The notes: a model not told the origin generated them from the sequence alone. A DNA stretch of 64,000 nucleotides from Candidatus Latescibacterota bacterium (GCA_964291625.2 OZ220089.1:1-64000); one strand, 5' to 3'. Positions 9,392 through 26,674 are shown, counted from the first letter of the stretch. Numbers and translations: made by a program.

Positions 9392-10604
9392 TCACTGGTT
9401 GTAGAAGTCGATCTGCTGCTGGGCGATGGAGCCCCTCTGGGTGAGGGCGAAGACGACGAGGTTGATCCCCAGCTTCACGTGGGGCTCGTTCTCGTTCTCC
9501 CTCTCCCAGAAGGCCCCGTAGCCCTTGTCGGAGTAGACGGCCACCAGCCGGCCGTCGAGGTAGATCCCCTCCAGCCAGTGGGAGGCCCGCCTCCCGGCCT
9601 GGTTCTCTGCGGCGCCGACGCCGACCTCCCCCCCGGGAGGCGGTCCGGCGAGGTCGAAGAAGACGTGGTAGATGGGATGGCTGTCGGGGATGCGCTCGAA
9701 GCGGGCGTCGCGGCCCAGGGGCGTGGCGGAACATCTGTCTCAGCGAGGCCTCCGCGGGGCCGTGCTGCATCTGGGGCAGGTCGTTGTCGGCGACCACGAA
9801 GCCGCCGCTGCGAAGGTACCGGTCGAGGCTCGCCGCCTCGTGCTCCGTGAGTTCGAAAGCGCGGTCGGTGGTGATGTAGACGAAGGGCGCCTTGAAGAGG
9901 TCCTGGGAGTCGAGGTACATCTGGTCGTCGACCTTGGCCTCGATGCGGGTGTGGTCGTTGATCCAGCGGGCCAGCTGGATCATGGAGCGCTTGCGGGAAG
10001 GCTCGAGGACGGTGCCCCAGGCCAAGCCGAGGTAGATGAAGCCGGTGATGTTGCGCTTGTCGGTGGGGTCCTGGATCACCAGGCTCTTGACCTTGCCGAT
10101 GTCGAGGGCGGCCAGATCGAGGAACTCGGTCTCCATGTCGATCCGCTTCTCGGGCTCCTTCAGACTGGTCATGACGACCTGCTCGAACCGCGGGATGCCG
10201 ACGAGGGCGCCGTCCGCCTCCCCCTCGCCGGCCGGGAGGACGAACTCGCCGCCGGCCCGCGCCCGCGTCCATTCCACCGACCCGGTCACGGCCGTCCGAG
10301 AGAGACCGCCCCGCACCACCGTGGCCGTGCGATCGCTGCGGGAACTCACCACCGGCGAGCCTTCCGGCACGGCCTGCTTGCGGAAGGCGAACTCCCGCAC
10401 CAGCCGGGGGGCGGGGACGTAGAAGGGGGTCTCCTCCTCCTCGAACTCGAAGCGGGCCACGATCCGCTCCTCCTCCACCCCGGGGCGCGTGGCCATCCAC
10501 GCGAAGAGCGCCGCGTGGAGGGCCGCCGAGAGAACCAGGGCGCCGCCGAAGAACCGCCGGTTCCGGCGCAGGACGGCGAGGATGTCGCGCGGCCCCGGGC
10601 TCAC
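9392..10604 (-). CDS. Membrane-anchored DUF4159-domain protein (one frameshift near 9718-9721)
   Basis: N-terminal TM FFGGALVLSAALHAALFAW; PFVYIT...YLRSGGFVVADN. Removing one base in the G run at 9718-9721 continues HALGRDARFERIPDSHPIYHVFFD...LEGIYLDGRLVAVYS...KLGINLVVFALT...FYNQ* (stop 9392-9394). Confidence 0.75.
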
Positions 10605-13600
10605 AGGTGCTTCCTCACGATCGAGTCACGCCGCCGCCGGGCAAAGTCGGCCACCTCGGGGGTGACCTGGGCGTTGCCCGTCTCCTCCTGGTCGATGATC
10701 TCCTGGAAGACCCCCACGGCCCGCTCCCACTCCTTCAGCCGCTGCAGGCAGACGCCGGCGTTGACTTTGGCCCCCACGCCGCCGGGGGTGTCCGGGTAGC
10801 GGCGCCATACCTCCTCCAGGGAGGCCAGGGAGCCGCGCAGCTGGTCCTCGTCCTCCTCCTCGACCGCGCGGTTGAACCGCTCCATGGCGGCGGTGTACTC
10901 CTGGAAGGCGATCACCTCCCGCAGTTGGGGCAGCACGGCGGCGGCCTCCTCGGCGGCCTCCGATCCCGGATGCTCGTCGAGGATGCGGCGGAACAGCTCG
11001 TGGGCGCGCTCGTACTCGCCGGCGTTGAAGCTCATCTCGGCGAGGGTGTAGCGCACCCTCGGCAGGTGCCGGCCCCGGGGATGGCGCCCGGCGTACTCCG
11101 AGAACGCCCGCACCGTCTCCTCTCCGGCCTGGTTCTCCCCGGAGGCGTTGGCCAGGCACCAGGCGATGTTGTAGAGGGCGTCCTCGGCCAGGCTGCTGGA
11201 GGGATGCTCGTCCACGACCCGCCGGTAGTTGCGCCGCGCCCTGTCGTACCGGTCGAGGTTGAACTGGCTCTCGGCCAGGCGGAAGAGGGCGTCGGCCGCC
11301 ACGTCCAGGTGCGGGTAGCGCTCCACCACCTCCTCGAAGTGGCCGATCGCTTCGCCGAAGCGGGCCTGGTTGTAGTGGGCGAATCCGAGATAGTAGCGGG
11401 CGCGGCCGGCGTCCTCGTGCCCCGGGTGGCGCTCGAGGAGCCGCCCGAGGCGGCCCACCGCCAGCTCGTGGCGGTCGAGCTGGAGCGCCGCCAGCCCGCC
11501 CAGGAGCAGGAAGTCCGGCGCGTAGAACCCCTCCGGCCAGCGCTCGAGGCCGGAGGCCGCCGCGGCCTCGGCGGCCCCCACCTCCCCGAGCTGGATGCCG
11601 GCGTCGGCGAGCAGGTAGAGGGCCTTCTCGCGCACGTGGTACGGACGTCCCTCGGGCAGGCTCTCCCCCTCCTCGAACTCCAGCTCCGCGATGCGCCGGC
11701 AGGCGGCGGCGGCCTCCCCGTAGCGCCCCTCGCGGAAGGCGATTTCCCCCTGGGCGAGGTAGAGCTCGGCCCGCTCCAGGGGCGTCTGGGCGCTTCGGGC
11801 CAGCCGGCCGTAGAGCTCCAGGGCTTCCCCGGTCCGCCCCGACGAGGTGTAGGCCGTGGCCAGCAGGCGGGGGGCGGAGGCCCTTAGCTCGGGCTCGGTC
11901 CAGTCCCGCTCCAGGTCGACCAGGGCCTCGGCGGTGCGGCCGAGGCGGAAGAGGGTGACGGCGCGTCCGTAGGCGGCCCTCTCCTCCAGGTCGGGACCGG
12001 CGGCTTCGGCGGCGGCGGAGAACTCGGGCAGAGCGGCCTGGTGATCGCCGAGGCGCGAGTACGAGGCGCCCAGCAGGTAGCGGGACAGCGCCAGGGACCG
12101 GGGCTCCTGCTCCTCGACCTCCAGGCCGACCCGGAGGACCTCGATCGCCCGCCGCGGCTCCTCCTGCAGAAGCAGGATCTGTCCGGCCTCCTGCCGGGAG
12201 CGGCCGTAGAGGCCGGCCTCGGGGTCTACCTCCAGGAACTGCTCGACCGCCGCCTCCGGGTCGCCCGCGTCCCTGAGCACCTGGGCGAGCTCGAAGCGGG
12301 CCATCTCCGCCTCCGGCCGGTCGCCGAACCCGTCGATGAGGCGCCGGTACCCGGCGGCGGCCTCGGCGTGGCGGCCGGCCCCATGGTCGATCCGGGCGAC
12401 CTGGAAGAGGGCGCTCATGCGGTAGCCGCCGTCGCCGGCGGCGGCTACCCCGAGGAACAGCTCCCGGGCCTCCCGCAGCCGGCCGCCGCCGCCCTGCAGC
12501 TGCATGGCGAGGGCCAGGTTGAAGCGCAGCTCGGCCTCGTAGTCGGAGCCCGGGTAGGCGCCCAGGGTCTGGCGCAGCTCGGCCTCGGCCCGGCGCAGGT
12601 AGTCCGATCCCTCGTCGCCGGACCGGCCCTCAGCGCGGCGGAACCAGGCCCTGGCGATCTGCAGCCCCGCTCCCTCGACGCTGAGCCCGGCCTGGGCGGC
12701 GCGGGCCTCGTAGAGGTTCCGGTAGCGGTCGTACTCGCGCACCGCCTCCTCGTAGTTCTCCAGCTCGAAGTGGCGGTTGGCGAGCAGGAGCTGCATGCGG
12801 GCCTTGCCGAAGGGGTCCCGCTGGGCCTCGATGGCCCGGCGGTAGACATCGATGCAGGACTCGACGTCCCCCCGGCCGCAATACATGTCGGCGTGGCGCA
12901 GGTAGGCCTCCTCGGCCAGCCGGCGTTCCTCGGCGAACTGGGTGGCCACCACCTCGAAGGCCTCGGCCGCCCCCGCGAGGTCGCCGGTCTCGGCGTGGCA
13001 GAGTCCGATCCGGAGCAGCGCCTTGGCCGCCAGCTCAAGGGCGGTCTCGTCCACCAGTCCGGCGATCTTCTCCCGCTTCATCAGCAGGATCTCGCGCTCC
13101 GACATCCGGCCGATGCGCTGGGAGTCGACGAGGCGCCGATAGCGCGGGATCGCCTCGGAGCAGCGGCCGAGCCGGACGTAGGCCTCGCCGAGCTGGAACA
13201 GGGCCCGGTGGACGCGGTAGCCGCTAGAGAACCGCTCCACCAGCCGCTCGAAGGCGTCGATGCTGCGGCCGTACTCCTCCTGGTCGTACCAGGCCCAGCC
13301 GATGTCGTACATGGCGTTGATGACGTACTTGCTGCCGGGATAGCGCTCGATCAGCAGCCGCGCCCCCTCGATGGCCCGGGGGTAGTCCTGCATCCCGTAC
13401 CAGCAGGAGACCGCCTGGCTGCGGGCCAGGGCCTTGAGGGCCGGCTGCGACGAGGCCGCCTCGGTCTCCACGAAGAGGGCGGCGGCCTTCTCGTAGAGCC
13501 GGGAGGCCTCGGCCCCGAGCCGGACGCCCTCCTCCGGATCGCGGGCGCGCCCGGCCCGGGCCTGTGCTTCCCTGGCCATCTTGAGGTGGGCGTTGCCGGT

Positions 13601-13849
13601 CTGGTAACGGGCGACCTCCCGCAGCGGCGCGGTGATGTCCCCCACCGTGACCAGGACCGTTTCGCCGTCGAGGAAGGGGCTCTCGGTGGCGGCGATCCCC
13701 TCGTACTTCTCCAGGGCCTGGTCCCAGGCCCCGGAGGAGTAGAACCTCTGGGCCTCGGCGAAGGAGGCCTGCAGCTCCTCCCTCGTCGGCGACAGGCGGG
13801 AGGCCGCGACCATCGCCGCGAGGAGGCCCAGGATCGTCAGCTTGACCAT
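10601..13849 (-). CDS. Large periplasmic TPR protein (BamD/CpoB-like repeats), 1082 aa
   Basis: N-terminal hydrophobic signal or anchor; many TPRs with YPGS/HPSS turns (ALFQLGEAY, ALFRLAESQF, ALYNIAWC). Confidence 0.85.
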   Translation of the reverse strand: MVKLTILGLLAAMVAASRLSPTREELQASFAEAQRFYSSGAWDQALEKYEGIAATESPFLDGETVLVTVGDITAPLREVARYQTGNAHLKMAREAQARAGRARDPEEGVRLGAEASRLYEKAAALFVETEAASSQPALKALARSQAVSCWYGMQDYPRAIEGARLLIERYPGSKYVINAMYDIGWAWYDQEEYGRSIDAFERLVERFSSGYRVHRALFQLGEAYVRLGRCSEAIPRYRRLVDSQRIGRMSEREILLMKREKIAGLVDETALELAAKALLRIGLCHAETGDLAGAAEAFEVVATQFAEERRLAEEAYLRHADMYCGRGDVESCIDVYRRAIEAQRDPFGKARMQLLLANRHFELENYEEAVREYDRYRNLYEARAAQAGLSVEGAGLQIARAWFRRAEGRSGDEGSDYLRRAEAELRQTLGAYPGSDYEAELRFNLALAMQLQGGGGRLREARELFLGVAAAGDGGYRMSALFQVARIDHGAGRHAEAAAGYRRLIDGFGDRPEAEMARFELAQVLRDAGDPEAAVEQFLEVDPEAGLYGRSRQEAGQILLLQEEPRRAIEVLRVGLEVEEQEPRSLALSRYLLGASYSRLGDHQAALPEFSAAAEAAGPDLEERAAYGRAVTLFRLGRTAEALVDLERDWTEPELRASAPRLLATAYTSSGRTGEALELYGRLARSAQTPLERAELYLAQGEIAFREGRYGEAAAACRRIAELEFEEGESLPEGRPYHVREKALYLLADAGIQLGEVGAAEAAAASGLERWPEGFYAPDFLLLGGLAALQLDRHELAVGRLGRLLERHPGHEDAGRARYYLGFAHYNQARFGEAIGHFEEVVERYPHLDVAADALFRLAESQFNLDRYDRARRNYRRVVDEHPSSSLAEDALYNIAWCLANASGENQAGEETVRAFSEYAGRHPRGRHLPRVRYTLAEMSFNAGEYERAHELFRRILDEHPGSEAAEEAAAVLPQLREVIAFQEYTAAMERFNRAVEEEDEDQLRGSLASLEEVWRRYPDTPGGVGAKVNAGVCLQRLKEWERAVGVFQEIIDQEETGNAQVTPEVADFARRRRDSIVRKHL

Positions 13850-13856
13850 GCTCCCC

Positions 13857-16682
13857 TCATTCGTCGAAGCCGAGGATGACGTTCATGAAGAGGGTCGTGG
13901 CCTCCCAGTTCTCGGCCGCCCGCAGGGGGTCGCCGAACTCGCGCGACCTCCTTCTCACCCCCAGGTTCATGGCGACCTCGTAGCCGAAGTAGGGCGAGAG
14001 GTTGGTCAACTGCAGCACCCGCGACCTCTCGTCGATGCTGTTGAAGCCGTCGGCGCGGTCGACGACGCGCACCGGCAGCCCCGGCACCCCCTCCAGGCCG
14101 AACCACAGGCGGGTGTTGGCGGTCAGCCGGTAGCGCACCTTCACGATCGGCAGCAGGGTCCACTCGTTGACCAGGTCCACGGGCAGACTCTCCCGGGCGC
14201 GGCGGAAGACCATCGCCTTGAACTGTCCCGTGAGCTGCCACGACCGGGCCGGCTCCCACACGTACTCGCTCCGCGCCACGGCGGTGAGCAGCCCCAGGCG
14301 GTCGGGGGGCTGGTGGCTGCCGTCGGCGAGCCGGCTCGGGCGCTGGCGGTTGACCGCGTAGCGGGCGTTCCCCCACAGGCGCAGGCCGGGAGCTGCCCTC
14401 CACTCCCCCTCCAGGTAGTGCTGGCGGTCGACGCTGTCCCGCCACTCCAGGTTGTCCTTGAAGATGCGCCTTCCGTAGCGCGGGAAGGTCCCCCCTCCCG
14501 TGAGCCGCTCCGAGAACACCTGGTAGGGGTTCTCCACGTCGTCGTGGAGCCGCTGCCACAGGATCTCGGCCCGGAGTCGGCCCCGGTCGGGGTCGACGAG
14601 CTCCAGGGACAGGCGTCCGTACAGGCTCTCGTTGCGCCCGCCCCCGGCGATGCCCCGCGCGTGCAGGCGGCCGGCGGTCAGACCGAGGCCGCGGGGCAGG
14701 TGCAGGCGGCCGTAGAGGTGGGTGCCCCGCTGGTCGAGGTCGTAGGGGAAGTCGGGGCGCAGGTCGTCCTCGCGCTCGTCGACGATGCCGTTGTTGTTCC
14801 AGTCCCGCCCGTAGACGAAGGCGTCGGGCTCGACGTCGAAACGCAGGAAGGGCTCCAGGTAGTCGGGCAGGTCGTTGCCGTTGCGGTTGGTGTCGGGGAT
14901 GCCGTCGTTGTCGTCGTCCTTGCCGGGAAAGACGCCGTCGGGATCGTACTCGGGGGAGGTCCAGAAGATCACCGGCCGGTGGCCCGGGCCGAGGTCGGGA
15001 TAGCGGTCGTCGTCGTCGTTGTCCTCCACGAAACCGCCGCTGAACTCCTCCTCGATGGAGAACGCCTCGCCGCCGCCTTCGACCGCGCCCCGGCGCCAGC
15101 TCCCGGTCACGTACCAGGCCCCGGAGGAGGTGCGGCTGCGGTCCCCGTTCCACCGGCGCAGTTGCGCCGACTCGCTCAGGCGGCGGAAGCCGGGCCGGCC
15201 GTCGGGATACTGGCGGTGCTCCACGCTGCGCGCGTACTCCCAGCGGACCCGGGCCCCGGCCGCCTCCCAGGAGCCGTCGACGCCCCACAGGGCCCGGCCC
15301 GTCCAGCCGCCCACGTCCAGCCGCACCCAGTCCAGGTTCGACAGGTCCTGCACGTTGCCGGGGGCCCGGACCCCGGCCCGGACCCCGGGGGTCTCCCGGA
15401 TGTTGTTGCCGCCGACGATCCTCCCCGTGATCAGCCCGCCGCCGGTGCTCCAGAGGAACTCCTCCTTGTTGTTGCTGGCCTTCGTCTGGAACAGGCCGAC
15501 CACGTCGACGCGGTAGTCGTTGCCCACCAGGGCCTCCACCTGGGCGGCGCGCACGTAGGGCTCGCCGCGCAGGTCGTAGAACAGGAGCACCGCCTCGTGG
15601 CCGTCGGCCCGCAGCTGCCCGGGTCCCGGCGGCAGCGGCTCCACCCAGCGCAGGAGCTCCGGCAGGTTCACGAGCCGGCTCACGTCCTCGCCGGCGAGGT
15701 GGCGCTGCAGGTAGAACACGTCGGCGAAGCGGGTCCCCTCGTCCTCGTAGACGGTGCGCAGGAACCCCGTCCCCGTGGGGATGCCGACGGCCGTGGGATT
15801 CTGGGCGTCGATGCGCACGGCGAAGGGCTGCAGGTCGGGGCGGAGCTGGCCGTCCAGGTAGAGCCTCACGTCGTTGATCACCGCCCCGGCCGTGCGGTCC
15901 TCGGGGGAGTCGTCGGCGAAGCGCACGATGAGGAAGCTCGGAAGCACCTGGGGCGACTGCAGGCCCCCGCGCATGCTGAACTCCGCCTGGTCCGAGTCGA
16001 AGAGGTGGAAGTTCACCCCGGTGAGGCCGAGGCTGGCGGCCCCCACCCGGACCTCGCCGTGGCCGCCCAGCAGCAGGGCCGCGTCCCGGGCCTCCTCGGA
16101 GATGTCGACCTGCCACCAGGTCGGGGCCTGGCCGTACTGGTCGCCGGAGACCGGGCCCATCCAGCGCTCGGCGATGGTGGTGAAGCGGGCGCGGCCGGTC
16201 TCGGCGTCGAGGCGGACCCCGTCGAAGCCCGCCAGCCTCAGGGTGAGGGGTGTGAAGGTGGTGCGGATCTCGCTGCCGATGACGAGGGCCGTGGCCCACC
16301 CCTTGTGGGACTCCCGGGCCACAATGTTGCGCCCGAAGCGGTCCCAGCGGGCCCGGTTCTCCACCGGCAGGGGCAGTCGCCGGGAACTGCCCGCCGACTC
16401 GGTGAAGGTGTTGGTCCGCGTCTCCCGCCAGTCGTAGACGTCGTATCCCTTGATCAGGAAGTTCCCCATGGGCCCGTAGTGGTTGACCCGGGAGTAGCGG
16501 CTCGAGTCGGGGATCACGTAGTCGGCGAAGCTGTAGTCGCGATAGCCGCGGCCGGGCCGGTAGAGGAAATCGCGGCTGGAGAGCCCCAAGGGGACCTCCG
16601 GCGCGGCGTCGGTGCCCGCCGGCCCCGCGCTCCCCGCCAGGAGGAGGAGGGCCGCGTATCCGAGGCGGGCCCGGCCCGTCAT
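13857..16682 (-). CDS. Secreted ~940-aa hypothetical protein, paralogue 3 (putative outer-membrane protein with acidic Ca-binding-type repeats)
   Basis: Signal peptide MTGRARLGYAALLLLAG; shares DDSPED, GNVQDLSNLDWV, VEDNDDDDRYPD, GVFPGKDDDNDGIPD and DWNNNGIVDEREDD blocks with the two neighbouring genes; amphipathic strands at the C-terminus. Confidence 0.75.
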   Translation of the reverse strand: MTGRARLGYAALLLLAGSAGPAGTDAAPEVPLGLSSRDFLYRPGRGYRDYSFADYVIPDSSRYSRVNHYGPMGNFLIKGYDVYDWRETRTNTFTESAGSSRRLPLPVENRARWDRFGRNIVARESHKGWATALVIGSEIRTTFTPLTLRLAGFDGVRLDAETGRARFTTIAERWMGPVSGDQYGQAPTWWQVDISEEARDAALLLGGHGEVRVGAASLGLTGVNFHLFDSDQAEFSMRGGLQSPQVLPSFLIVRFADDSPEDRTAGAVINDVRLYLDGQLRPDLQPFAVRIDAQNPTAVGIPTGTGFLRTVYEDEGTRFADVFYLQRHLAGEDVSRLVNLPELLRWVEPLPPGPGQLRADGHEAVLLFYDLRGEPYVRAAQVEALVGNDYRVDVVGLFQTKASNNKEEFLWSTGGGLITGRIVGGNNIRETPGVRAGVRAPGNVQDLSNLDWVRLDVGGWTGRALWGVDGSWEAAGARVRWEYARSVEHRQYPDGRPGFRRLSESAQLRRWNGDRSRTSSGAWYVTGSWRRGAVEGGGEAFSIEEEFSGGFVEDNDDDDRYPDLGPGHRPVIFWTSPEYDPDGVFPGKDDDNDGIPDTNRNGNDLPDYLEPFLRFDVEPDAFVYGRDWNNNGIVDEREDDLRPDFPYDLDQRGTHLYGRLHLPRGLGLTAGRLHARGIAGGGRNESLYGRLSLELVDPDRGRLRAEILWQRLHDDVENPYQVFSERLTGGGTFPRYGRRIFKDNLEWRDSVDRQHYLEGEWRAAPGLRLWGNARYAVNRQRPSRLADGSHQPPDRLGLLTAVARSEYVWEPARSWQLTGQFKAMVFRRARESLPVDLVNEWTLLPIVKVRYRLTANTRLWFGLEGVPGLPVRVVDRADGFNSIDERSRVLQLTNLSPYFGYEVAMNLGVRRRSREFGDPLRAAENWEATTLFMNVILGFDE

Positions 16683-19456
16683 CCCTGGAAGGGCTCCACG
16701 CCCATGACCAGCCGCAGGAAGAACACGGCGCGGTCGATGTTGCGCGCGTCCCGGCCCGCCTCCCGGAACCTCAGCTTCTTCAGGCGGTAGCCCATGTTGA
16801 GGGTCATGAGGTGGCCCTGGTAGGTGGTGGTGTTGGCGACCATGGCGACGTAGTCCCGGGAGGAGTAGTCGACGCCGCCGTGGAGCGGGTACCGGTAGCG
16901 GGCATCGAGGAAAGGCAGGCCCTGGGCCCCGGCGCGCAGGGAGGTCCGCGGCGTCAGGGCGTACTCGGCGAGCAGGATCGGGTAGAGCCGGCGCTCCGAG
17001 ACGGCATTGATCCGGCCCTCCTCGTCCCGCCTGCTGTAGGCCATGTACTTCACCTGGGGCGTGAGGGTGAGGGCCCGCAGCCGCCACCGGTAGTCCGCGC
17101 GCAGCACCCAGGCCAGCTCGCGGATGGTGTTGGCCGGCTGCCGGGAGGTCCGCCTCTGCAGGTTGAGGGTGTGCTTGAGCCGGCTGTCGACGGTCAGGTC
17201 CGCGACGCGCAGGAAGGTGGCCTCGAGCCAGGCGATATTCACGACACTGTCCCTCATGAGCAGCTCGTCGCCGACCTCGGCGGTGTAGTAGTCGTCGTTG
17301 CCCGGCACCGGATCCATGGGGACCGCGTGCTGCTCGAACCAGGCGAGCCTCGGCGCGTCGTCGGTGATGTCGTCGCGGACGCGCTTGAGGGTGTTGGAGA
17401 AGTCGATTCTCCCGTAGGGGTAGAGGGGGTGGTCGTACTTCAGCCGCGCATAGGCGACGTGGTTGCGGCCCCCGCCCCACACCTGCCGGACCCGGAACCC
17501 GCCCAAGGTCAGGGTCAGGTCGTCGGCGGCTTCGAACCCCACGAAGAGATGATGCCCCCTCGTGTCGGCGTCGTAGGGATAGTCGGGGTCGCGGTCGTCC
17601 TCCCTGTCGTCGGTGACGCCGTTGTTGTTCCAGTCGTCGCCGCGGGCGTACTCCGGGGGGTCGACGTGGTAGAGGAAGAAGGGCTCGAGATAGTCGGGGA
17701 CGGCGTTGCCGTTCTCGTTGACATCGGCGCGGCCGTCCTGGTCCTGGTCGAGGCCCGGAAAGACGCCGTCCACGTCGCCGAAGCTGCTCTGCAGGAAGTG
17801 GAAGTCCGGGCGCAGGTCCTTGTCGTCGTTGTCGTCCACCGTGTCGAGCTCGAGGGTGTTGTTGTAGCGCTCCGCCCAGTTGGGGTCGACCTCGCCTCGG
17901 AAGGGGCTGCCCTCGATGTCGGTGTAGCTGCGGAAGACGGTGCTCTGGATGGCCAGCGAAGTCCCGTACAGGGGGTCCATGCGGAACAGCTCGCCGCCCA
18001 CCTGGAACCGGTCGAACCGCCGGGTGGCGTTGATGAAGAAGGCGTTCCCCGAGCGCCGCTGCCACCGCTTCCGGCCCGGGGCCGTGGGGTACTGACGGAA
18101 GTCGAGGCTCCGGGCCCACTCGGAGCGCACCTGGAACCCGAGGCTCTCCAGCTCGATGCGGGCGCTGGCCACGGTGCGCCCGCTCTGCCGGCCGTACTCG
18201 AACTCGACCCACCGCAGGTTGCTGCCGTCCTGCACGTTGCCTATCTGGGCGGCGACCTCGTGGAAGTACGAGGCCTGCTGCCCGAAACCGCCCACCCCGG
18301 AGGCCAGGGGCTGGACCTCGGCGATGCTGATGGCGTAGTCGTTGGCCACGAGGGCGCGGAAGCGGACGGCCTCGACCCGGCCGCGCAGATCCTCGGGGAT
18401 CTCGAACCAGTAGATGAGGTACTCGCTGCCGTTGGCCTCGAGGTAGCCGCGCCCCTGCGGGTCCTCCAAGGGAAGCTCCCCCCTGGCGAACTGCAGGTAC
18501 GGCGGGATCGTGCGGTTGCGCGGGAACAGCCGGTCCCGGTTGGCGTTGGTCTGATCGCGCTGCCTGGAGTCGTGGCGGGTGACGCTCACGCGGACCGCGT
18601 CCCTCAGCTCCCCCGCCGCGTGCAGGTCCATGACGCGGGCTCCGCGGCCGTCGTCCGGGGATCCGTCGCCGACCTTGACGGCGATCATCATGGGGGGCAC
18701 GGTGCCGCTGGAGGGCAGCACGCCTCTCAGGGTGTGGTCCCCCCAGTCGATGAAGCTGTCCGTGCGGTTCAGGTTGACGTAGTTGAGGCCCACGTTCAGG
18801 GCGCCGATCTGCCGCTCCAGGTGGCCCCCCAGGAGGTAGGCCGGCTCCTGCCGCCGGCCGTGAAACTCGTTGTCCTCGGGGACCGCCCGGCCCACGTTGA
18901 GCTTGGCCGCGTAGATGGGGAAGTCGGCCCGCGAGGAGACCAGGGAGAGCCGGGTCGGTCCCGTGTCCATGTCCCATCGCACCCCGTTGAGGGCCGCCAG
19001 GTCGAGGGTCAGGGCCGTGAACTTGGTGCGGATGCGATCGCCCACGATGAGCCGGGCGGCCCGGTTCTTGTAGTTGTCCCGGGCCACCACCAGGTTGCTG
19101 ACCCAGTCCGAGTAGATCAGCCGCGACTGGCCGGCGGCGACCCCCCGCTGCCCGAAGGCCCGGTTCGACTTGTCGATCACGCTGCCGTTGCCGAATGCGA
19201 TCGACGGTCTCGTCTCTTCGCTGCTCCAGATCGTCGTGCCGCGCATGACGTAGCTGCCGAGGTCGTCGAAGACGGGCCTCCGTCTCTGCGACCAGGGATC
19301 GACGGCGTAGGGGTGGTAGCCGCTGCGGGCGTAGCTGTCCTCGTACTCCCCCCCCTCCTGGTAGAGCAACTGGGAGGAGGCCGCCCCCGGCCACGACAGG
19401 AGGCCCCACAGCCCCGCGAGGAGGGCAAGACCCGGGCGTCTGGCGCGGCCGGCCAT
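16679..19456 (-). CDS. Secreted 925-aa hypothetical protein, paralogue 2
   Basis: Signal peptide; LLGGHLER, GNVQDGSNLRWVEFEYG, VDDNDDKD, GVFPGLDQDQDG, DDWNNNGVTDDREDDRDPDYPYD. Confidence 0.75.
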   Translation of the reverse strand: MAGRARRPGLALLAGLWGLLSWPGAASSQLLYQEGGEYEDSYARSGYHPYAVDPWSQRRRPVFDDLGSYVMRGTTIWSSEETRPSIAFGNGSVIDKSNRAFGQRGVAAGQSRLIYSDWVSNLVVARDNYKNRAARLIVGDRIRTKFTALTLDLAALNGVRWDMDTGPTRLSLVSSRADFPIYAAKLNVGRAVPEDNEFHGRRQEPAYLLGGHLERQIGALNVGLNYVNLNRTDSFIDWGDHTLRGVLPSSGTVPPMMIAVKVGDGSPDDGRGARVMDLHAAGELRDAVRVSVTRHDSRQRDQTNANRDRLFPRNRTIPPYLQFARGELPLEDPQGRGYLEANGSEYLIYWFEIPEDLRGRVEAVRFRALVANDYAISIAEVQPLASGVGGFGQQASYFHEVAAQIGNVQDGSNLRWVEFEYGRQSGRTVASARIELESLGFQVRSEWARSLDFRQYPTAPGRKRWQRRSGNAFFINATRRFDRFQVGGELFRMDPLYGTSLAIQSTVFRSYTDIEGSPFRGEVDPNWAERYNNTLELDTVDDNDDKDLRPDFHFLQSSFGDVDGVFPGLDQDQDGRADVNENGNAVPDYLEPFFLYHVDPPEYARGDDWNNNGVTDDREDDRDPDYPYDADTRGHHLFVGFEAADDLTLTLGGFRVRQVWGGGRNHVAYARLKYDHPLYPYGRIDFSNTLKRVRDDITDDAPRLAWFEQHAVPMDPVPGNDDYYTAEVGDELLMRDSVVNIAWLEATFLRVADLTVDSRLKHTLNLQRRTSRQPANTIRELAWVLRADYRWRLRALTLTPQVKYMAYSRRDEEGRINAVSERRLYPILLAEYALTPRTSLRAGAQGLPFLDARYRYPLHGGVDYSSRDYVAMVANTTTYQGHLMTLNMGYRLKKLRFREAGRDARNIDRAVFFLRLVMGVEPFQG

Positions 19457-19457
19457 G

Positions 19458-22151
19458 CTACAGGGCCCGGACCTGGATGAAGAACTCGGTGAACCTCTCC
19501 ACCGGCTGCTTCGGCAGCGAGACCCGCACGGCGCGGCTCGAGCGGACCCCCATGTTCACGCTCACGTCGTAGCCGCTGTAGTTGCCCGTGGTCTGCACCG
19601 CCGCGAGGTAGTGGCGGGCGTCGAAGTCCTCCCCCTCGGCCCTGCAGTTGCGGTGCATGTGCCGGAACCCGGGGACCCCCTGGACCCCGGCCCTCAGGAG
19701 CGTGCCGGAGCTGAGGCGGTAGTCGGCGCGGAGGATTGGGAAGAGGTCCCAGACGTGCACCGAAGCCAGCAGCCGCCCCGGGGCCTCCCGCCGCAGCACC
19801 AGGAGCTTGGCCATCGGCGAAAGGGTGATCCCGCCGCGCACCCAGGTGTAGTCGGCCTTGCTCACGAAGGCGTACTCGCGCACGTCGCCCGGGACCGCCC
19901 CGACCCCTGCGCGGCGGGCGTTCCACTCGCACTTCACCGCGTTGAAGACGTCGAGGCCGCGGATCGCGGTGTAGCGGCCCTCCAGGAAAGCGGTGTGGAC
20001 GAGGCTGTTGGCCAGGAGCAGCCCGTCGGGCCTCAGCCGGTAGACGACCTCGGCCCTCGAAGTCTGATCGAAGGCGTGCTGGTAGACGGGGTTGGGGATG
20101 TCATCGCGGACCCTGCGTAGGCGGTAGTTCAGGCGCATTCCGCCGGTCCCATCCCGGGTGAGGCCGTACCCCAGCTCGGCGTAGCTCACCTCGTTGCGGC
20201 CGCCGCCGGCCCGCTGGCGCAGGTCGTAGCGCCCCACGACCAGGTCGAGCCCCGGCGCCGGCCCCAGGCCGAGAAGGACGTGATACCCCCTCTGGTCGCG
20301 GTCGTACGGGTAGTCGGGCTTGTTGTCGTTCTCCCTCTCGTCGACGACCCCGTTGTTGTTGAAGTCGTCGCCGTACACGAACTCGTCGGGCTCGGCCCCG
20401 TACATGAAGAAGGGCTCGGCGTAGTCTGGGATGTGATTGCGGTTGACGTTCACGTCCACCGTGGCGTCGTCGTCCGCGTCGAGGCCTGGGAAGACTCCGC
20501 GGCCCCCTCCGAGCTGGTAGTCCCACCGGGGCTGGGGGACCTGGGCGTCGGGGTCCGGGTCGCTCGAGGAGCGGTAGACCTGGGACCACGCCGGATCGAG
20601 GACGTCCCAGTGCTCGACCACGTCCGGCCACTCGTCGCCGTCGTCGTTGTCCTCCACGAGGTCGTAGCGCAGCAGCTTGTTGCCGCCGCTGAGCCAGACC
20701 GGCATGGAAGTCTCGAAAGCGGCGGGCATCTCCACGTACTCCAGGCCGAGCCGCCAGCCCGCGGCCTTGCGTGACAGCCGGGCGTACCAGGCACCGGTGC
20801 CGTCGGCGCGGCGGCGGCCGTCATGGGGGAACTGGAAGCGCTGCTCGTTGAGCACGTAGGCGGCGTCCACGGTGGCGCCCAGCCACCTCACCGTGAGGTT
20901 GCTACCGTACTGGGCAAGGCCCGTCGGGAAGCCGTATTCGACGGTCACCCAGGCGAGGTTGGACCCATCGGTGACGTTGCCCGCCGCCCGGGCGACGTTG
21001 TGCCAGTCGTCCCAGCGCGGCTCTCCTCCTCCCTGGAAACCGTACGAGGCGCCCACGTCGATGCTGTAATCGCCGGAGACCCGCAGCCGGTAGCGCAGGT
21101 CCCGGGCCGCCCCGGGGATCTCGAAGCGGTAGATGAGCAGGTCCGTGCCGGTGACCTCCACGGGGCCCCCGCCGGAAGGTACGGGAACGCCGTGGGTGAA
21201 GAAGCGGCCCGGCCGGCCCCTGCTCCGGGTATCCACCCGGAGCACCCTGTCGGCCTCCGGAATCCGCGGCGCCCAGGCGCCGTCGCGGCGGATGTGGGGC
21301 GCGTGCTCGGGATCGACGGTTAGGAGCGTCCGGCGGGTGCCGTCGAAGACCGAGGTCGGCAGCAGGCGGACATCCGGCTCCAGGTCGAGCACCCGGCCGT
21401 CGGCGACGACCTGGATATCGAAGAGCCGGGGACCGAGACCGTCCCCGGGCGAGTCGTCGCTGATGATGACGTAGTAGGAGCCGGCCGGCTCGAGACGGGT
21501 GGGGACGTTGCCGCGCAGGCTGGCGCCGCGCCGCTGCGAGTCCTGAAGGTGGAAGTTGACGTAGGTCGCCCCGAAGGTGACCACATCGCCCACCCTGCTC
21601 TCCCAGTGGCCGCCGAAGAGGTAGTGGGAGAAGAACCGGTTGGCGCTAATCGGCCGGGGCGCCCGGGAGACGACGGCGGAGAAGCGGTTGCGGTGGGAGG
21701 AGGCGTCCCAGCGGAAACCCTCCAGGCGGGCCAGGTTCAGGGTCAGGGGGCCGAAGTAGCCGTCCAGCAGGTCTCCCATCATGAACCGGGAGCCCCAGCC
21801 CCGGTAGTCGTCGCGGAGGATGACCATGTTGCGGAAACGGCCCAGGTCCCACGAGGCGGAGCTGCTGACGATAGGGTTGAGCGTCCGCGTCTCCTGGACC
21901 CGCAGGATCTCCCGCCCGTCGACGAGATAGAGCCCGAAGGGGTCGTAGAGCGGGGCCTCCCGACTCTCGCCGTAGTCCCGGTAGCTGTTCAGGCTGTAGT
22001 TCTCGTAGCGCTCCTCCCAGAGGGGGTGGTACTCCTTGTTGAGGAATTCCCGCTCCCCCGACCACGGATCCTGGCTGAGGAACTGGGCGTGGGCGGCCCC
22101 CGCCGCCAGGAGCGCGGTGAGGGCTGCGCTAGTAAGCGACGGCGACGACAC
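19458..22151 (-). CDS. Secreted 897-aa hypothetical protein, paralogue 1
   Basis: Signal peptide ending AHA; LFGGHWES, DDSPGD, GNVTDGSNLAWVTVEYG, VEDNDDGD, GVFPGLDADDD, DDFNNNGVVDERENDNKPDYPYD. Confidence 0.75.
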   Translation of the reverse strand: MSSPSLTSAALTALLAAGAAHAQFLSQDPWSGEREFLNKEYHPLWEERYENYSLNSYRDYGESREAPLYDPFGLYLVDGREILRVQETRTLNPIVSSSASWDLGRFRNMVILRDDYRGWGSRFMMGDLLDGYFGPLTLNLARLEGFRWDASSHRNRFSAVVSRAPRPISANRFFSHYLFGGHWESRVGDVVTFGATYVNFHLQDSQRRGASLRGNVPTRLEPAGSYYVIISDDSPGDGLGPRLFDIQVVADGRVLDLEPDVRLLPTSVFDGTRRTLLTVDPEHAPHIRRDGAWAPRIPEADRVLRVDTRSRGRPGRFFTHGVPVPSGGGPVEVTGTDLLIYRFEIPGAARDLRYRLRVSGDYSIDVGASYGFQGGGEPRWDDWHNVARAAGNVTDGSNLAWVTVEYGFPTGLAQYGSNLTVRWLGATVDAAYVLNEQRFQFPHDGRRRADGTGAWYARLSRKAAGWRLGLEYVEMPAAFETSMPVWLSGGNKLLRYDLVEDNDDGDEWPDVVEHWDVLDPAWSQVYRSSSDPDPDAQVPQPRWDYQLGGGRGVFPGLDADDDATVDVNVNRNHIPDYAEPFFMYGAEPDEFVYGDDFNNNGVVDERENDNKPDYPYDRDQRGYHVLLGLGPAPGLDLVVGRYDLRQRAGGGRNEVSYAELGYGLTRDGTGGMRLNYRLRRVRDDIPNPVYQHAFDQTSRAEVVYRLRPDGLLLANSLVHTAFLEGRYTAIRGLDVFNAVKCEWNARRAGVGAVPGDVREYAFVSKADYTWVRGGITLSPMAKLLVLRREAPGRLLASVHVWDLFPILRADYRLSSGTLLRAGVQGVPGFRHMHRNCRAEGEDFDARHYLAAVQTTGNYSGYDVSVNMGVRSSRAVRVSLPKQPVERFTEFFIQVRAL

Positions 22152-24414
22152 CGCTTCGGGTCTCGTTGCCCGTGTCGAGATCGGCCTCGACTCGGAAGAG
22201 GTAGAGCCCCGGGGGCACCCTCCTTCCGGCCGCGTCGGTGCCGTCCCAGGTTCCGGGCGCCCCCGGACCCACGTAGGCGCCAGCCGGGACCGGCGGCGGG
22301 GTGAGGTCGCGCACCGGCCGGCCGCCGAGATCGAAGATGCGGATCGAAACGCGCCGCGGCCGGTCCACCACCGAGAGGATGAACTCGATCACCGTGCGGT
22401 CGTTGATGCCGTCGCCGTTCGGCGTGATCACCGGCGGCTCGGCCCGCACCTGCGAGAGGGCGTCTTCCCGGGTCGTGGAGGTGGCCACCGACCAGGACCA
22501 GGGCTCGTCCGTGTCCGGGTCGCGGCCTCGGTTCTCGGCGGCGTTGAGGGGGTTCTCAGAACCCGGACTGAAGAGGGCCGCCCGGAACTCGTGAGCGCTG
22601 GCGTGGGTGCGCGTAAGAAAGGGGATCTCCAGCGCCATGGGCGCGGCCAGGGGCTCGGCGAAGGTCAGGGTGAGGTGCCGCTGGGTGGACTCCCAGCCCG
22701 AGAGCAGATCGCTGACGGCGGCCTCTTCCGCCAGCCGGGCGGCGCTCGGCACGTCGATGCGCAGCCTCGCGACGCCGAGATCCTCCGCTTCTAGCTCGAG
22801 ATCCAGGTGGTAGGTGAAGAGCTGCTCCTCGCCCATGGGGACCCTGTTGGGCGAGACCCGGCCCCGGGTCGCCCGTCGATGGAGCAGCCCCGACCCCGCG
22901 GGATAGAGAGCGGTGGAGGCGGCCACCTCGGTGTCGAAGTCCACCTCCAGATGCTCGAACACCGGCGTGAGGTCCTGGTCGTGGGTCGCCAGGTGGAGGC
23001 GATACTGCAGGAGCCGCCCCGGCTCGGCGGCGGGGAACCAGGCGCCGCTGGAGTCAGGGGCGCTCCAGCCTCCGTCGTCGGTGAAGACGGCCAGCTCCAG
23101 GGTGTCGTCGCCGGCGGCGAACTTCGCCAGCGAGTCCCCCGCGGCGGAGACGAAGAGCCGGCGGCCGTCCGCGGCGGCGGCGAGGGAGTCTCCCGTGCGA
23201 ACCTCGAGCGAGATGCTGGTGCGCTCGGGGACCGTCGCCTCCCAGCGCAGCCGCCCCAGGTTCTTTGGGCCGGCGGGGGCGCCGAGGTCCAGGAGCCGGG
23301 AGAGGTAGACGCCCTCGTCGGCGAATCCGTCGCCGAAGACCTCGAACTCGGCGATCGCCGGGCGGGAGCCGGGGTTGATGTCGACGATGACGAAGCGCAC
23401 GAAGCGCGTCCAGGTGGGGCGGAATTCCACCTCCGTCCACGGGTACTGGGACGGGTCGGCGTCGGCACCGGAACAGGGGGAACGCTTCCAGGGCATGCAG
23501 CCGATGTCGTGGCGCACGCCGACCTCGGTCCAGCGGATCTGGTCGTCGCTGACCTGCACCGAGTAGCCCCGCAGGGAGTTCTCCTCGAACTCCCTGGCGT
23601 TTCGGCCCAGGGTGATGACCCTGACCTTGTGGATCAGCCGCCGGTCCTGCAGGTCCACGTCGGCGGAGAAGCTGAGGGCGCTCGCCGGGGCGTTCCAGCC
23701 CTTCTCCAGATTCCCGTCCACGACCTCGGGGTGGTTGGAAGGCTTGCCGAGGGCGAGGTTCACGCCCCTGATCCGGCCGAGGACCACGCCCCCCGCCACG
23801 CTGCCTAGGTCGACGCCTCCGGGCAGACCCGCGACCACGGCCGGAAGCCCTCCCGGGAGCCCGTCGTATGCGACACCGCTCGTGTCCATTGCGCCTTCCT
23901 GGACCACCAGCCAACCCTCGCGGTCCTCCACCCCGCCCATCGTCCATTCCGTCCCCTGCGGCCGATCGGCCGACCAGCGCCAGGCCTGGATCCTCTGGTT
24001 CGTCGTCGTCCGGGCGAGGATCGAATCCCCGGCGACCACAGCCGCCATGACGCCGTTCCCGGCCCCGTCGCCGCCATTCACGACGGCGATACCGATGTCG
24101 TTCTCACCGCTCGCGATGGCGACTTCGTGGGCGGTCATCCGGGTCCAGAGGGAGTCGGAGCCGACGCGGAGACCGTTGAAGAAGACCTCGTACTGGTCGA
24201 CGGCAGCCACGTGCAGGGACCCCGTCGTCTCCGCTCCGGAGACGAAGGTGGTCCGGTAGAGGATGGTGTCGGGCCAAGTGCTCTGCACCAAGGAACCCGG
24301 ACCGGCGGCAGCCCTCCCAGCAAAGGGGGCGGCCGTCAAGACGAGGACGTACGCCGCCAGACGGCCGCCGCTCCTGACGGGAGAAGGACGGCTGCTCAGG
24401 TCGGGGCTCGGCAT
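22129..24414 (-). CDS. Secreted protein with discoidin/F5-8 type C-like domain and C-terminal FlgD/CHU_C-like Ig domain
   Basis: NLALGKPS...VDGN...VDLQ...YSVQVSDDQIRWT...TRFVRF...IAEFEVFG; C-terminal ITPNGDGIND...IFDLGGRPVR...WDGTDAAGRRVPPGLYL. Confidence 0.8.
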   Translation of the reverse strand: MPSPDLSSRPSPVRSGGRLAAYVLVLTAAPFAGRAAAGPGSLVQSTWPDTILYRTTFVSGAETTGSLHVAAVDQYEVFFNGLRVGSDSLWTRMTAHEVAIASGENDIGIAVVNGGDGAGNGVMAAVVAGDSILARTTTNQRIQAWRWSADRPQGTEWTMGGVEDREGWLVVQEGAMDTSGVAYDGLPGGLPAVVAGLPGGVDLGSVAGGVVLGRIRGVNLALGKPSNHPEVVDGNLEKGWNAPASALSFSADVDLQDRRLIHKVRVITLGRNAREFEENSLRGYSVQVSDDQIRWTEVGVRHDIGCMPWKRSPCSGADADPSQYPWTEVEFRPTWTRFVRFVIVDINPGSRPAIAEFEVFGDGFADEGVYLSRLLDLGAPAGPKNLGRLRWEATVPERTSISLEVRTGDSLAAAADGRRLFVSAAGDSLAKFAAGDDTLELAVFTDDGGWSAPDSSGAWFPAAEPGRLLQYRLHLATHDQDLTPVFEHLEVDFDTEVAASTALYPAGSGLLHRRATRGRVSPNRVPMGEEQLFTYHLDLELEAEDLGVARLRIDVPSAARLAEEAAVSDLLSGWESTQRHLTLTFAEPLAAPMALEIPFLTRTHASAHEFRAALFSPGSENPLNAAENRGRDPDTDEPWSWSVATSTTREDALSQVRAEPPVITPNGDGINDRTVIEFILSVVDRPRRVSIRIFDLGGRPVRDLTPPPVPAGAYVGPGAPGTWDGTDAAGRRVPPGLYLFRVEADLDTGNETRSGVVAVAY

Positions 24415-26500: not shown

Positions 26501-26674
26501 CTTCCTGCCTCCCTCCTGCAAGGGTGGTCGGGGGTCGTTTTTACCATGAGGCTGTCCGCCCCCTTTGAGGGGCGTCTGGGAAACTTCACACCTTGTTGTT
26601 TTCCTGTAACTTAGGGGATATTGTGATCAAGGTGGGGAGGAATCCCCACTACACATTTGGAGGATAGTGTATCC

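Follow-up and report, generated by a model that had tools for sequence, protein, structure and literature searches.

The Agl-Glt/Nfs machinery of Myxococcus xanthus, with a core complex of aglRQS and gltC, D, E and G, has the closest architecture to the gene cassette examined here. In one account of this machinery (PMC11761067), both the adhesin CglB and the TPR protein GltC are bound by a barrel trio, GltA/B/H, while the TonB-like domains of GltG/J bind the TPR protein GltD; a further report (PMC3169522) was also used for the comparison. For type IX secretion (T9SS), PMC9143113 indicates that proteins with type-B tails associate with PorP-like proteins, leading to anchorage at the cell surface, and PMC12635249 indicates that a moving periplasmic track drives SprF. 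Other points of comparison were SlpA of Deinococcus radiodurans, a giant barrel (30-strand trimer; PDB 7zgx and 8ae1), and the TonB-dependent transporters and SusC, in which an outer-membrane barrel is combined with ExbB/ExbD, a TonB-C-like domain and glycan-binding-type surface partners. Among the papers listed on DUF4159, on the outer membrane and TonB of Latescibacter and on sponge-associated Latescibacter, no description of the barrel family was found; TonB, gliding, outer membrane and ExbD each had 0 occurrences in PMC7081726, and PMC4454575 mentioned, of such proteins, only porins and Plug-type receptors.

The window was the whole stretch of 64,000 nucleotides that was analyzed (Candidatus Latescibacterota bacterium, GCA_964291625.2 OZ220089.1:1-64000). 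Positions 13857-22151 were found to hold exactly three tightly packed genes, as follows.

19458-22151, minus strand: barrel gene g1, position 1, 897 aa, with a signal peptide (ORF and translation)
16679-19456, minus strand: barrel gene g2, position 2, 925 aa, with about 24 to 26 predicted strands, a predicted Ig-like insert at protein positions ~232-414 and a predicted acidic loop block at ~505-631
13857-16682, minus strand: barrel gene g3, position 3, 941 aa

The ATG of g3 lay on the g2 stop codon in an ATGA overlap. All three products had a hydrophobic N-terminal leader ending in small residues, as read from the translations rather than by a predictor, and their C termini (...VRAL, ...EPFQG and ...GFDE) lacked a terminal Phe or Trp. 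Pairwise BLASTP analysis agreed with the initial annotation in identifying these genes as diverged paralogues and aligned them over their full length, with identities of 32% for g1 and g2 (E = 7e-96), 29% for g2 and g3 (E = 3e-91) and 30% for g1 and g3 (E = 2e-81). The family was large: clustering at 50% identity left ~975 clusters, 106 genomes were positive for it, and a single genome could carry up to dozens of copies; 25 copies were present in this genome, and 79 match segments were detected in genome G171.

The initial annotation had asked whether the three positions form stable orthologous clades, and stable position-specific clades were found for positions 1, 2 and 3, so that this test did not refute its proposal. 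Positions 1 and 2 each formed one clade in a FastTree phylogeny (28/28 sequences in both cases, with a support of 100), and position 3 held 22 of 27 sequences in its clade. With IQ-TREE, the position 1 (14/14) and position 2 (14/14) sequences each formed a clade with 100/100 support, and the 14 position 3 sequences sat within a clade of 17. In 9/9 comparisons with the three further cassettes of this genome, each window gene was nearest to the gene at its own position. The three positions are separate, old clades, with position 3 being nearly one clade. Pairwise distances among the three positions were correlated (r = 0.98 for 351 locus pairs from 27 triples), which shows co-inheritance only. 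We considered it highly improbable that the barrels are three independent, partly redundant porins arising by tandem duplication, with functionally unrelated neighbors. Family members were also found singly or paired, as this explanation would allow, but order and number were kept in 24 fetched loci and four loci of this genome, and the positional clades, supported at 100/100, had congruent subtrees. Fixed order combined with positional clades is unlike the behavior expected of recent redundant duplicates.

No named family had been recognized in the initial annotation, and this was borne out by the absence of Pfam and NCBIfam matches at an E value of ≤0.1, with homologues being named only as hypothetical. 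A search of PDB sequences with the family profile produced only two chance rows (E = 0.024 and 0.31). Every motif block listed in that annotation was recovered as an invariant run in a three-way alignment of g1, g2 and g3: F..LTL.LA...G.R.D, GGH.E, D.SP.D, GNV.D.SNL.WV, V.DNDD.D, GVFPG.D.D.D, PDY.EPF and D.NNNG..D.RE.D..PD.PYD.D.RG. The acidic block was also real, spanning 97 to 126 residues with 28 to 33 Asp and Glu versus 7 to 9 Lys and Arg, and was better conserved than any other part of the family, with ≥90% conservation among 148 members at 22 of 127 columns, compared with 4/99, 6/111, 6/183, 5/90 and 13/294 columns in the remaining regions. The description of this block as similar to thrombospondin type 3 (TSP3) repeats held for the presence of acidic Dx[DN]x[DN]G loops (one to three per protein) but did not extend to family membership, as the acidic blocks matched neither TSP_3 nor any other Pfam family. 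When the blocks alone were searched against Pfam at an E value of ≤10, the sole row was DUF7151 on g1 (E = 3.8); the likeness is thus a resemblance of motif only, because the TSP_3 profile was without a match even at this threshold. TSP3 repeats have a cysteine framework, whereas cysteines are scarce in the barrels (median of 0 to 1 per protein), and the acidic block is one conserved unit rather than a repeat array. The acidic loop block is probably loaded with calcium.

Structure prediction was in agreement with the proposal of a beta-barrel with an inserted beta-sandwich. An AlphaFold2 model of g2 (pLDDT, 75.7; pTM, 0.75) was of moderate confidence, with values of <60 across the first 120 residues and a large part of the acidic block, and predicted a large, closed, antiparallel outer-membrane barrel of ~24 to 26 strands. 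Foldseek analysis of this model detected 48 matches with an E value of ≤1e-3; those among the matches listed were all outer-membrane barrels and included SlpA (E = 5.6e-9), MtrB, LptD and SprA (8gl6_A; E = 1.9e-4). The matches listed by VIA-align were likewise all outer-membrane barrels, and the best of these was SlpA (7zgx_A; Z = 13.3, rmsd of 7.1, 422 residues aligned). The TM-scores for SlpA were only ~0.2, and the likeness is therefore one that large barrels share in general; there was no sequence similarity, and the barrels here do not have the SLH or coiled-coil N terminus of SlpA. The insert, modeled by itself, was predicted to be an Ig-like sandwich (pLDDT, 78.6; pTM, 0.81). Its best VIA-align matches, to Ig-like domains of pilins, adhesins and cohesins, had Z scores in the noise range (5.9 to 5.0), and Foldseek found no match for it at an E value of ≤1e-3, so that it can be described only as a generic Ig-like sandwich without an assigned family. 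Turn-length parity suggested that this sandwich and the acidic block face outward. The alternation of residues in flanking strands described in the initial annotation was not confirmed; a simple even/odd difference in hydropathy over the 24 predicted g2 strands was 1.75 versus 1.50 ± 0.22 for shuffles, which was not significant. In the ESM Atlas, the clusters nearest to the barrel were unnamed, and the nearest Pfam-bearing cluster was DUF6029, a putative TonB-dependent-receptor-like barrel (score of 0.89), which we treat as a lead only.

The three barrel genes belonged to a wider cassette consisting of two surface proteins, the three barrels, a TPR protein, a DUF4159 protein, a lipoprotein, ExbB and two ExbD proteins. 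The motor, the TPR protein and the surface proteins lie beyond what the initial annotation covered. Four copies of the cassette were present in this genome, and the 24 triple loci fetched from other genomes also represented it, although the 10-kb flanks of these loci cut many cassette ends. From the gene for the F5/8 type C surface protein to the DUF4159 gene, successive genes overlapped or were separated by gaps of ≤7 nt. Short exact contig matches to the cassette were present in one metatranscriptome library (X11), which may contain DNA; these are a weak hint of transcription, and such short contigs say nothing on strand or level. The genes downstream of the barrels and the nearest motor genes were as follows.

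10601-13849, minus strand: 1,082-aa TPR protein with YbgF/CpoB- and BamD-like repeats and an N-terminal signal or anchor
9390-10604 (3' end approximate), minus strand: DUF4159 protein (Pfam), anchored in the membrane at its N terminus
8181-9377, minus strand: 398-aa lipoprotein with an LAGC lipobox and an AgmX/PglI (GltJ/GltG)-type TonB-C-like C terminus
29487-31012, minus strand: motor set nearest the cassette (Pfam, translation and tblastn)
30323-31012, minus strand: ExbB (Pfam MotA_ExbB, E = 3e-31)
29882-30310, minus strand: ExbD (Pfam ExbD, E = 1e-18)
~29487-29880, minus strand: second ExbD (translation and tblastn)

The TPR protein, present in 4/4 cassettes of this genome and 17/24 fetched loci, matched TIGR02795 over five stretches (192 bits) and fell below the cutoff of 250 for the PorW/SprE model NF052312 (100 bits); its other matches were generic TPR matches. 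A DUF4159 protein was found in 21 of the 24 fetched loci. In this assembly its gene was broken by one extra base at a C4 run near 9719-9722, such that the in-frame match covered profile positions 17 to 113 of 202 and the remainder lay in another frame; two other runs were without the extra base at 9718. A TonB-like SxxxH anchor was rejected as a general feature of DUF4159 proteins, since only 10 of 30 carried SxxxH. The lipoprotein was detected in 19/24 fetched loci. In the window, it scored 51.0 bits against NF033768 (cutoff of 40) and 24.0 bits against tonB_Cterm (cutoff of 27.1). Three lipoproteins of this genome exceeded the NF033768 cutoff (51.0, 53.4 and 50.2 bits); two others, the homologues in cassettes C and D, had no TonB-C-like domain in the NF033768 search. 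The full GltG model gave 20 to 37 bits against the lipoproteins, compared to a cutoff of 650.

ExbB and one or two ExbD genes lay inside or within ~10 kb of all four cassettes of this genome, and 5 of the 8 ExbB genes in the genome were beside giant-barrel cassettes. Among the fetched loci, ExbB was found in 7/24, a count limited by the 10-kb flank. In the window, a plus-strand sulfatase gene stands between the motor genes and the cassette. In total, 7 of the 12 barrel loci in this genome lacked their own TPR, DUF4159 or motor set, and therefore the motor is dispensable for some family members.

These features resembled the Agl-Glt system in four respects: a TolQR/ExbBD-type motor is encoded with large TPR proteins, a GltG/GltJ-type TonB-C-like domain is present (NF033768 above cutoff), there is a three-barrel outer-membrane module, for which the holding of adhesins is known in Glt and would be expected in the cassette, and several copies occur per genome. 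There were also differences. The cassette barrels are ~900 aa in length and are paralogues of one another, in a family without a name; a lipoprotein rather than a bitopic FHA protein carries the TonB-like domain; the TPR protein matched no Glt model (15.2 bits for GltE, NF033758, against a cutoff of 225); and the cassette adds an anchored DUF4159 protein and lectin-like cargo with T9SS tails.

An arrangement in which SlpA-like trimeric pillars tether or stiffen the outer membrane, with the cassette acting as an integrity system akin to Tol-Pal, was judged very unlikely. It would fit the best structural neighbor of g2, the trimeric 30-strand SlpA (Z = 13.3), the CpoB/YbgF-type units of the TPR protein (TIGR02795, 192 bits) and the observation that ExbB and ExbD scored best against the TolQ and TolR models, below the cutoff. 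Against this, Pfam searches found no SLH, coiled-coil or peptidoglycan-binding domain in the three barrels, four to five cassettes per genome, with family members numbering up to dozens, are ill suited to a housekeeping tether, and the constant lectin-like partner would be left unexplained.

The lectin-like partners were encoded upstream of the barrels, and a separate T9SS gene was located elsewhere in the genome, as follows.

22129-24414, minus strand: F5/8 type C (discoidin) surface protein with a CHU_C-type T9SS tail (Pfam)
24560-26521, minus strand: surface protein bearing FlgD_ig domains, with a C-terminal tail of T9SS type (Pfam)
G000:C1:99638-104335: SprA gene (TIGR04189), distinct from the barrels (profile match)

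The first of these proteins matched F5_F8_type_C (E = 4e-10) and CHU_C (27.6 bits; cutoff of 27), and its gene was immediately upstream of barrel 1 in 22/24 fetched loci, the other two being cut by the locus edge. The second matched FlgD_ig (E = 1e-15) and CHU_C (33.4 bits) and was found in 18/24 fetched loci. At each of the 12 barrel loci in this genome, a tail-bearing partner was present within 15 kb of the barrels. This direct adjacency of a CHU_C-tailed surface protein gene and an outer-membrane barrel gene is shared with T9SS type-B/PorP-SprF pairs. The barrels described here differ in occurring in threes, in having no Pfam or NCBIfam family match and in their linkage to ExbB/ExbD rather than GldLM; no PorP/SprF profile matched them among these libraries, which presumably contain a PorP/SprF model. 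PorP/SprF barrels are several times smaller than the cassette barrels.

The constant adjacency of tail-bearing genes is also what would be seen if the barrels were a secretion conduit, that is, a second motor-driven translocon, parallel to the T9SS, which exports or inserts the tail-bearing proteins or a polymer. Parallels with the T9SS can be drawn between the giant barrel and SprA, which was among the Foldseek matches, between the TPR protein and PorW/SprE, at a score below cutoff, and between the proton motors. The NCBIfam search, however, produced no match of the SprA/Sov model TIGR04189 to the barrels, and the genome already has a canonical T9SS, with SprA (607 bits) and two PorU proteins (572 and 537 bits) above cutoff and 49 short matches to the PorU-model tail region scattered genome-wide away from the barrel loci. 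The ordinary T9SS can therefore account for export, and we regard a second translocon as quite improbable.

The main rival to the reading that we favor is energized import, in which the barrels would be gated channels that take up large substrates (glycans or peptides, for example), fed by the lectins and opened by the motor through the TonB-C-like lipoprotein as a Latescibacterota counterpart of SusC/SusD or other TonB-dependent systems. The cassette has its own ExbB/ExbD set and a TonB-C-like domain, the surface proteins bear F5/8 type C domains of sugar-binding type, and the expansion of the family (25 copies here and 79 segments in G171) resembles that of substrate-specific uptake families. 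The DUF6029 cluster (score of 0.89), again as a lead only, and flanking genes for a sulfatase, an FGE-sulfatase, a BNR protein, an ABC sugar-binding protein and a GlcNAc 2-epimerase point in the same direction. By contrast, Pfam searches detected no Plug or TonB-dependent receptor match in the barrels and no TonB box was identified, while 24 ordinary Plug-domain receptors are encoded elsewhere in the genome; a motor set for each cassette is a further difference from TonB-dependent transporters and SusC. Nor was the TonB-C-like domain universal among cassettes. At the eight further barrel loci, comprising seven simple loci and a motor-linked pair locus (L080), the recurrent neighbors were tail-bearing proteins, SurA-like chaperones and FG-GAP/ASPIC and TPR proteins. 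Few hydrolases or other degradative enzymes surrounded these loci, and a reading of them as polysaccharide-utilization loci with enzymes was rejected. Overall, energized import appeared unlikely, though less so than the other alternatives.

The reading that we favor, at about even confidence, is that the cassette encodes a motor-linked outer-membrane platform which holds and actuates lectin-like surface proteins. Starting from the paralogy, predicted barrel fold, positional clades, cassette conservation and domain identities observed here, we suggest that the three non-redundant, position-specific barrel paralogues would form the outer-membrane module of a co-inherited cassette and may assemble into one hetero-complex. 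The upstream lectin-like proteins would be exported by the ordinary T9SS of the cell and then bound by the barrels, which would most likely retain them at the surface as PorP/SprF barrels do for type-B cargo. Coupling to the inner-membrane ExbB/ExbD motor could run through the periplasmic TPR scaffold, the anchored DUF4159 protein and the TonB-C-like domain of the lipoprotein. Under force from the motor, the surface proteins would shift or switch state, resulting in capture of, or adherence to, host or algal glycans. Several observations sit poorly with such a platform: a barrel of 24 to 26 strands far exceeds the size needed for anchoring; the lipoproteins of cassettes C and D have no TonB-C-like domain; the opposite-strand sulfatase splits the window motor from the cassette; 7/12 barrel loci of this genome do without the TPR, DUF4159 and motor set; the SxxxH anchor motif is confined to 10/30 DUF4159 proteins; and the barrel model is of moderate confidence, with a hydropathy alternation that was not significant.

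A more far-reaching version of the platform reading, which we put forward tentatively, is that a calcium-stabilized, heterotrimeric giant-barrel platform is the outer end of an undescribed class of ExbB/ExbD-driven envelope machine. The proton motive force would move or gate lectins delivered by the T9SS, and the class would be distinct from TonB transport, Tol-Pal, Agl-Glt and T9SS/gliding. With dozens of cassettes per genome, such machines might be the answer of the Latescibacterota to polysaccharide-utilization loci or gliding adhesion.

The Latescibacterota are uncultured bacteria that abound in sediments, oceans and sponges. Neither Pfam nor NCBIfam names the barrel family, and every elaborate cassette comes with a proton motor of its own. 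For structural work, the conserved acidic block and the constant order of the three genes are clear targets. If the cassette does encode a motor-driven surface platform, this would represent a new use of ExbB/ExbD-type motors at the outer membrane and would make glycan capture or host adhesion open to testing in a phylum that is major but uncultured.

The three giant-barrel genes, designated g1, g2 and g3 for positions 1, 2 and 3 of the triple, are packed end to end, with a one-base gap between g1 and g2.

19458-22151, minus strand: g1, 897 aa
16679-19456, minus strand: g2, 925 aa
13857-16682, minus strand: g3, 941 aa, overlapping g2 as ATGA

Because the window is rich in G+C (~72%), the coding regions are overlapped by long spurious frames. 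The true g1 and g2 frames were distinguished by a third-position G+C of 0.92 to 0.96, and the g3 frame was chosen by homology to these two genes. BLASTP comparisons of the three pairs detected full-length similarity at 29 to 32% identity (E values of 7e-96, 3e-91 and 2e-81), and each of the ordered motif blocks named in the initial annotation was an invariant run in a three-way alignment. The coordinates and pairwise comparisons confirmed the presence of three tandem, diverged paralogues, an observation that is far beyond chance.

No named family had been recognized for these proteins, and none emerged here: Pfam and NCBIfam searches gave no matches to g1, g2 or g3 at E ≤ 0.1, and 32 close homologues lacked Pfam domains and carried only the name "hypothetical protein." Comparison of a family profile with PDB sequences yielded nothing real, the ESM Atlas returned solely unnamed clusters, and no published description of the family was found in the literature searched. 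Searching 1.84 billion representatives with a profile gave 975 clusters at a threshold of E ≤ 1e-3 and 307 at the stricter E ≤ 1e-30, indicating that the family is real and moderate in size. Members were present in 106 of 168 species genomes of the phylum and in every one of the other 75 genomes assigned to the window's taxonomic family; none was detected in the genomes of two sister families (0 of 22 and 0 of 31). Most loci were labelled Latescibacterota, with some labelled Gemmatimonadota, Kryptoniota, Zipacnadia or Myxococcales. Runs carrying sponge or coral metagenome labels contained near-identical DNA, and short exact matches to parts of g1, g2 and four neighboring genes in one RNA-library run weakly suggest transcription of the cassette.

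An AlphaFold2 model of g2, built on a 32-sequence alignment, had a mean pLDDT of 75.7 and a pTM of 0.75. The predicted barrel wall comprised residues 121 to 231, 415 to 493 and 632 to 920, with about 24 to 26 long strands by our own count from the DSSP string rather than by tool output. Residues ~232 to 414 formed a separate strand sandwich predicted with high confidence, the acidic block (residues ~505 to 631) was predicted with low to middling confidence, and residues 1 to 120 were poorly predicted. A Foldseek search of the PDB with this model gave 48 matches at E ≤ 1e-3, and those listed were exclusively outer-membrane barrels; Deinococcus SlpA/SDBC (E = 5e-9) and MtrB (1.5e-8) ranked at the top, followed by LptD and SprA, and TM-scores were only ~0.2. 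Similarly, VIA-align comparison with 48,161 chains gave only barrels among the matches listed, the best being SlpA (7zgx_A; Z of 13.3, rmsd of 7.1, 422 residues aligned). The predicted strands showed no significant hydropathy alternation in a simple test, so the barrel assignment depends on the model and on the structures nearest to it. These results favor, as a predicted fold, the beta-barrel with an inserted sandwich that had been proposed. When folded separately, the insert gave an Ig-like sandwich (pLDDT of 78.6, pTM of 0.81) with no convincing relatives (best Z of 5.9; no Foldseek matches at E ≤ 1e-3). All turns of 2 to 5 residues lay at one side of the modelled barrel. The short-turn side of such barrels is usually periplasmic, and this placement suggests that the insert and acidic block would lie at the outer face.

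The acidic block spans 97 to 126 residues, of which 28 to 33 are acidic and 7 to 9 basic, and is the most conserved region of the family, with 22 of 127 columns at least 90% conserved across 148 members compared to 3 to 6% of columns elsewhere. Dx[DN]x[DN]G loops numbered three in g2, three in g3 and one in g1. The earlier description of this block as TSP3-like survives as a motif resemblance only, since neither TSP_3 nor any other calcium-binding family was matched in Pfam even at E ≤ 10. From established knowledge of such loops, the block is putatively calcium binding.

A lack of position-specific clades, together with variable copy number, had been named as a result that would refute the initial interpretation; such clades were recovered here. 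In a scan that took a single genome from each species, at least 623 family-encoding stretches were detected, and 24 of the 64 loci kept were triples in the same gene order. In a FastTree phylogeny of 148 members, two clades with a support of 100 each united the position-1 genes (28 of 28) and the position-2 genes (28 of 28), respectively; additional members of these clades came exclusively from truncated loci. Position 3 was less uniform, with 22 of 27 genes in one weakly supported clade, and the five outliers were third genes parted from the second by inserted genes. A careful IQ-TREE analysis of 50 rows recovered positions 1 and 2 (14/14 each, both 100/100) and needed two label changes for the 14 position-3 genes. 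A quick IQ-TREE run on the same rows placed these 14 inside a fully supported clade of 17, the other three being stand-alone or tandem genes from other loci, and groupings were shared among the subtrees of the three positions. The third barrels of six variant triples clustered with stand-alone family members. Four of these triples (L004, L005, L037 and L060) have their own F5/8C-like gene ahead of the third barrel; in the other two (L010 and L057), TPR, DUF4159 and lipoprotein genes separate barrel 2 from barrel 3.

The window's genome (5.9 Mb, two contigs) encodes 25 family members at 12 loci, four of which are triples. The nearest relative of each window barrel gene in the other three cassettes (B, C and D) was the same-position gene in 9/9 comparisons. 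Together with the positional clades and shared subtree groupings, this indicated that the triplication is old and that whole cassettes were duplicated later. Pairwise distances correlated across the three positions (r = 0.98, 351 locus pairs), which shows co-inheritance only. Across the family, copy number varied; at the low end a Kryptoniota-labelled genome had a single match, and at the high end one sponge-type genome had 79 match segments. Elsewhere in the window's genome, an isolated gene of the position-3 type (G000:C1:373290-376436, plus strand) adjoins cassette B divergently; its 88% identity to the third gene of that cassette identifies it as a recent single-gene duplication.

The barrels are members of a conserved gene set, the cassette, with the following composition in the window:

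24560-26521, minus strand: FlgD_ig protein with a T9SS-type tail
22129-24414, minus strand: F5/8 type C protein with a CHU_C tail
13857-22151, minus strand: the three barrels, g1 to g3
10601-13849, minus strand: 1082-aa TPR protein with YbgF/BamD-like units
~9390-10604, minus strand: DUF4159 protein with an N-terminal membrane anchor
8181-9377, minus strand: lipoprotein with an AgmX/PglI (GltJ/GltG)-matching C-terminal domain (NF033768, 51 bits versus a cut-off of 40; tonB_Cterm, 24 bits, under its cut-off)
29487-31012, minus strand: ExbB, ExbD and a second ExbD, past a plus-strand sulfatase gene

The sulfatase gene (778 aa, 27144-29480, plus strand) parts the ExbB/ExbD genes from the remainder; an FGE-sulfatase-type gene lies at the end of cassette B. 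The listed ORF at 8181-10604 comprises two genes, encoding the DUF4159 protein and the lipoprotein. The former is broken by an extra C in a CCCC run at ~9719-9722 (window 9690-9750, minus strand); contigs of sequencing runs X11 and X3 have one base fewer at position 9718 and X1 matches the window, which leaves an assembly indel or a strain-specific frameshift as the explanation.

The set recurs at three more sites of the genome, with ExbB and ExbD internal in two. Among 24 fetched triples, the F5/8C protein was directly upstream of barrel 1 in 22 (the remaining 2 being cut by the locus edge), and the DUF4159 protein, lipoprotein, FlgD-tail protein and TPR protein were present in 21, 19, 18 and 17, respectively. 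ExbB was present in 7, a count in which the 10-kb flank hides many ends; giant-barrel cassettes adjoin five of the eight ExbB genes of the window's genome. The minimal conserved pair, a barrel and a tail-bearing protein, was found at 12/12 loci of this genome, and at 7/12 no dedicated TPR, DUF4159 or motor set accompanied the pair.

Eight further barrel loci were annotated, comprising seven simple loci and a motor-linked pair (L080). A SurA-like chaperone gene closely followed the barrel gene in five of these. Such double-PPIases of ~550 aa (L073:11077-12735, L074:12276-13970, L075:15805-17502, L077:11699-13366, L078:13403-15082 and L068:6070-7713), encoded near the barrel gene in these five loci and in cassette C, may be dedicated chaperones of the giant barrels. 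FG-GAP/ASPIC and TPR proteins recurred around the eight loci and degradative enzymes were few. Genes for FG-GAP/ASPIC (UnbV) beta-propellers, frequently accompanied by multi-TPR genes, lie just upstream in the window (950-6050, plus strand) and at L068:2256-6067, L073:2572-4605, L077:13354-17018, L079:5941-7836 and L080:10461-12197. DUF6785/DUF6784 proteins of ~655 aa are encoded next to three barrel loci of the window's genome (L066:15338-17332, L070:4-1974 and L077:16906-18870).

Two known identities were ruled out for the barrels: the T9SS translocon, as SprA (607 bits) and two PorU genes (572 and 537 bits) are encoded elsewhere in the genome, where a PorV-like gene scored under the cut-off; and a TonB-dependent receptor, as plug and receptor matches were absent and the genome has 24 ordinary Plug-domain genes. 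The PorU model gave 49 short genome-wide matches to its C-terminal tail region (in the window, PorU-model matches lie at 24602-24826 and 62740-62955) and three longer PorU-like matches. The tail matches, SprA and the two PorU genes indicated a very large T9SS cargo set in this organism.

In the reading with the best support, the cassette encodes a machine that spans the envelope: an outer-membrane platform formed by the three barrels would hold T9SS-delivered lectin-like proteins, and the TPR protein, DUF4159 anchor and TonB-C-like lipoprotein would tie the platform to an ExbB/ExbD motor of its own. The main rival is energized import through the barrels. For the envelope-spanning machine, we infer that the barrels form a heterotrimer, as had been suggested, that they bind cargo and that they are coupled to the motor. 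In architecture, the nearest known system is Agl-Glt of Myxococcus, in which the GltA/B/H barrel trio is described as holding the adhesin CglB and binding the TPR protein GltC through the barrel N termini, and the large TPR protein GltD as being bound by TonB-like domains of GltG and GltJ (PMC11761067). A core set of aglRQS with gltC, D, E and G is reported in several copies, of unknown function, in polysaccharide-degrading bacteria (PMC3169522). The pairing of barrel and tailed cargo resembles that described for type-B cargo with PorP/SprF barrels (PMC9143113; PMC12635249). In membership checks against Agl-Glt/PorP-type systems, positive outcomes were limited to the motor genes and the GltG/J-type domain; the barrels and TPR protein matched no Glt, PorP or other model. 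Overall, these analyses indicated that a conserved family of predicted giant outer-membrane barrels, fixed in triplicate inside a motor-linked surface cassette, is real, and that this cassette would be a new variation on known motor-coupled envelope machines.
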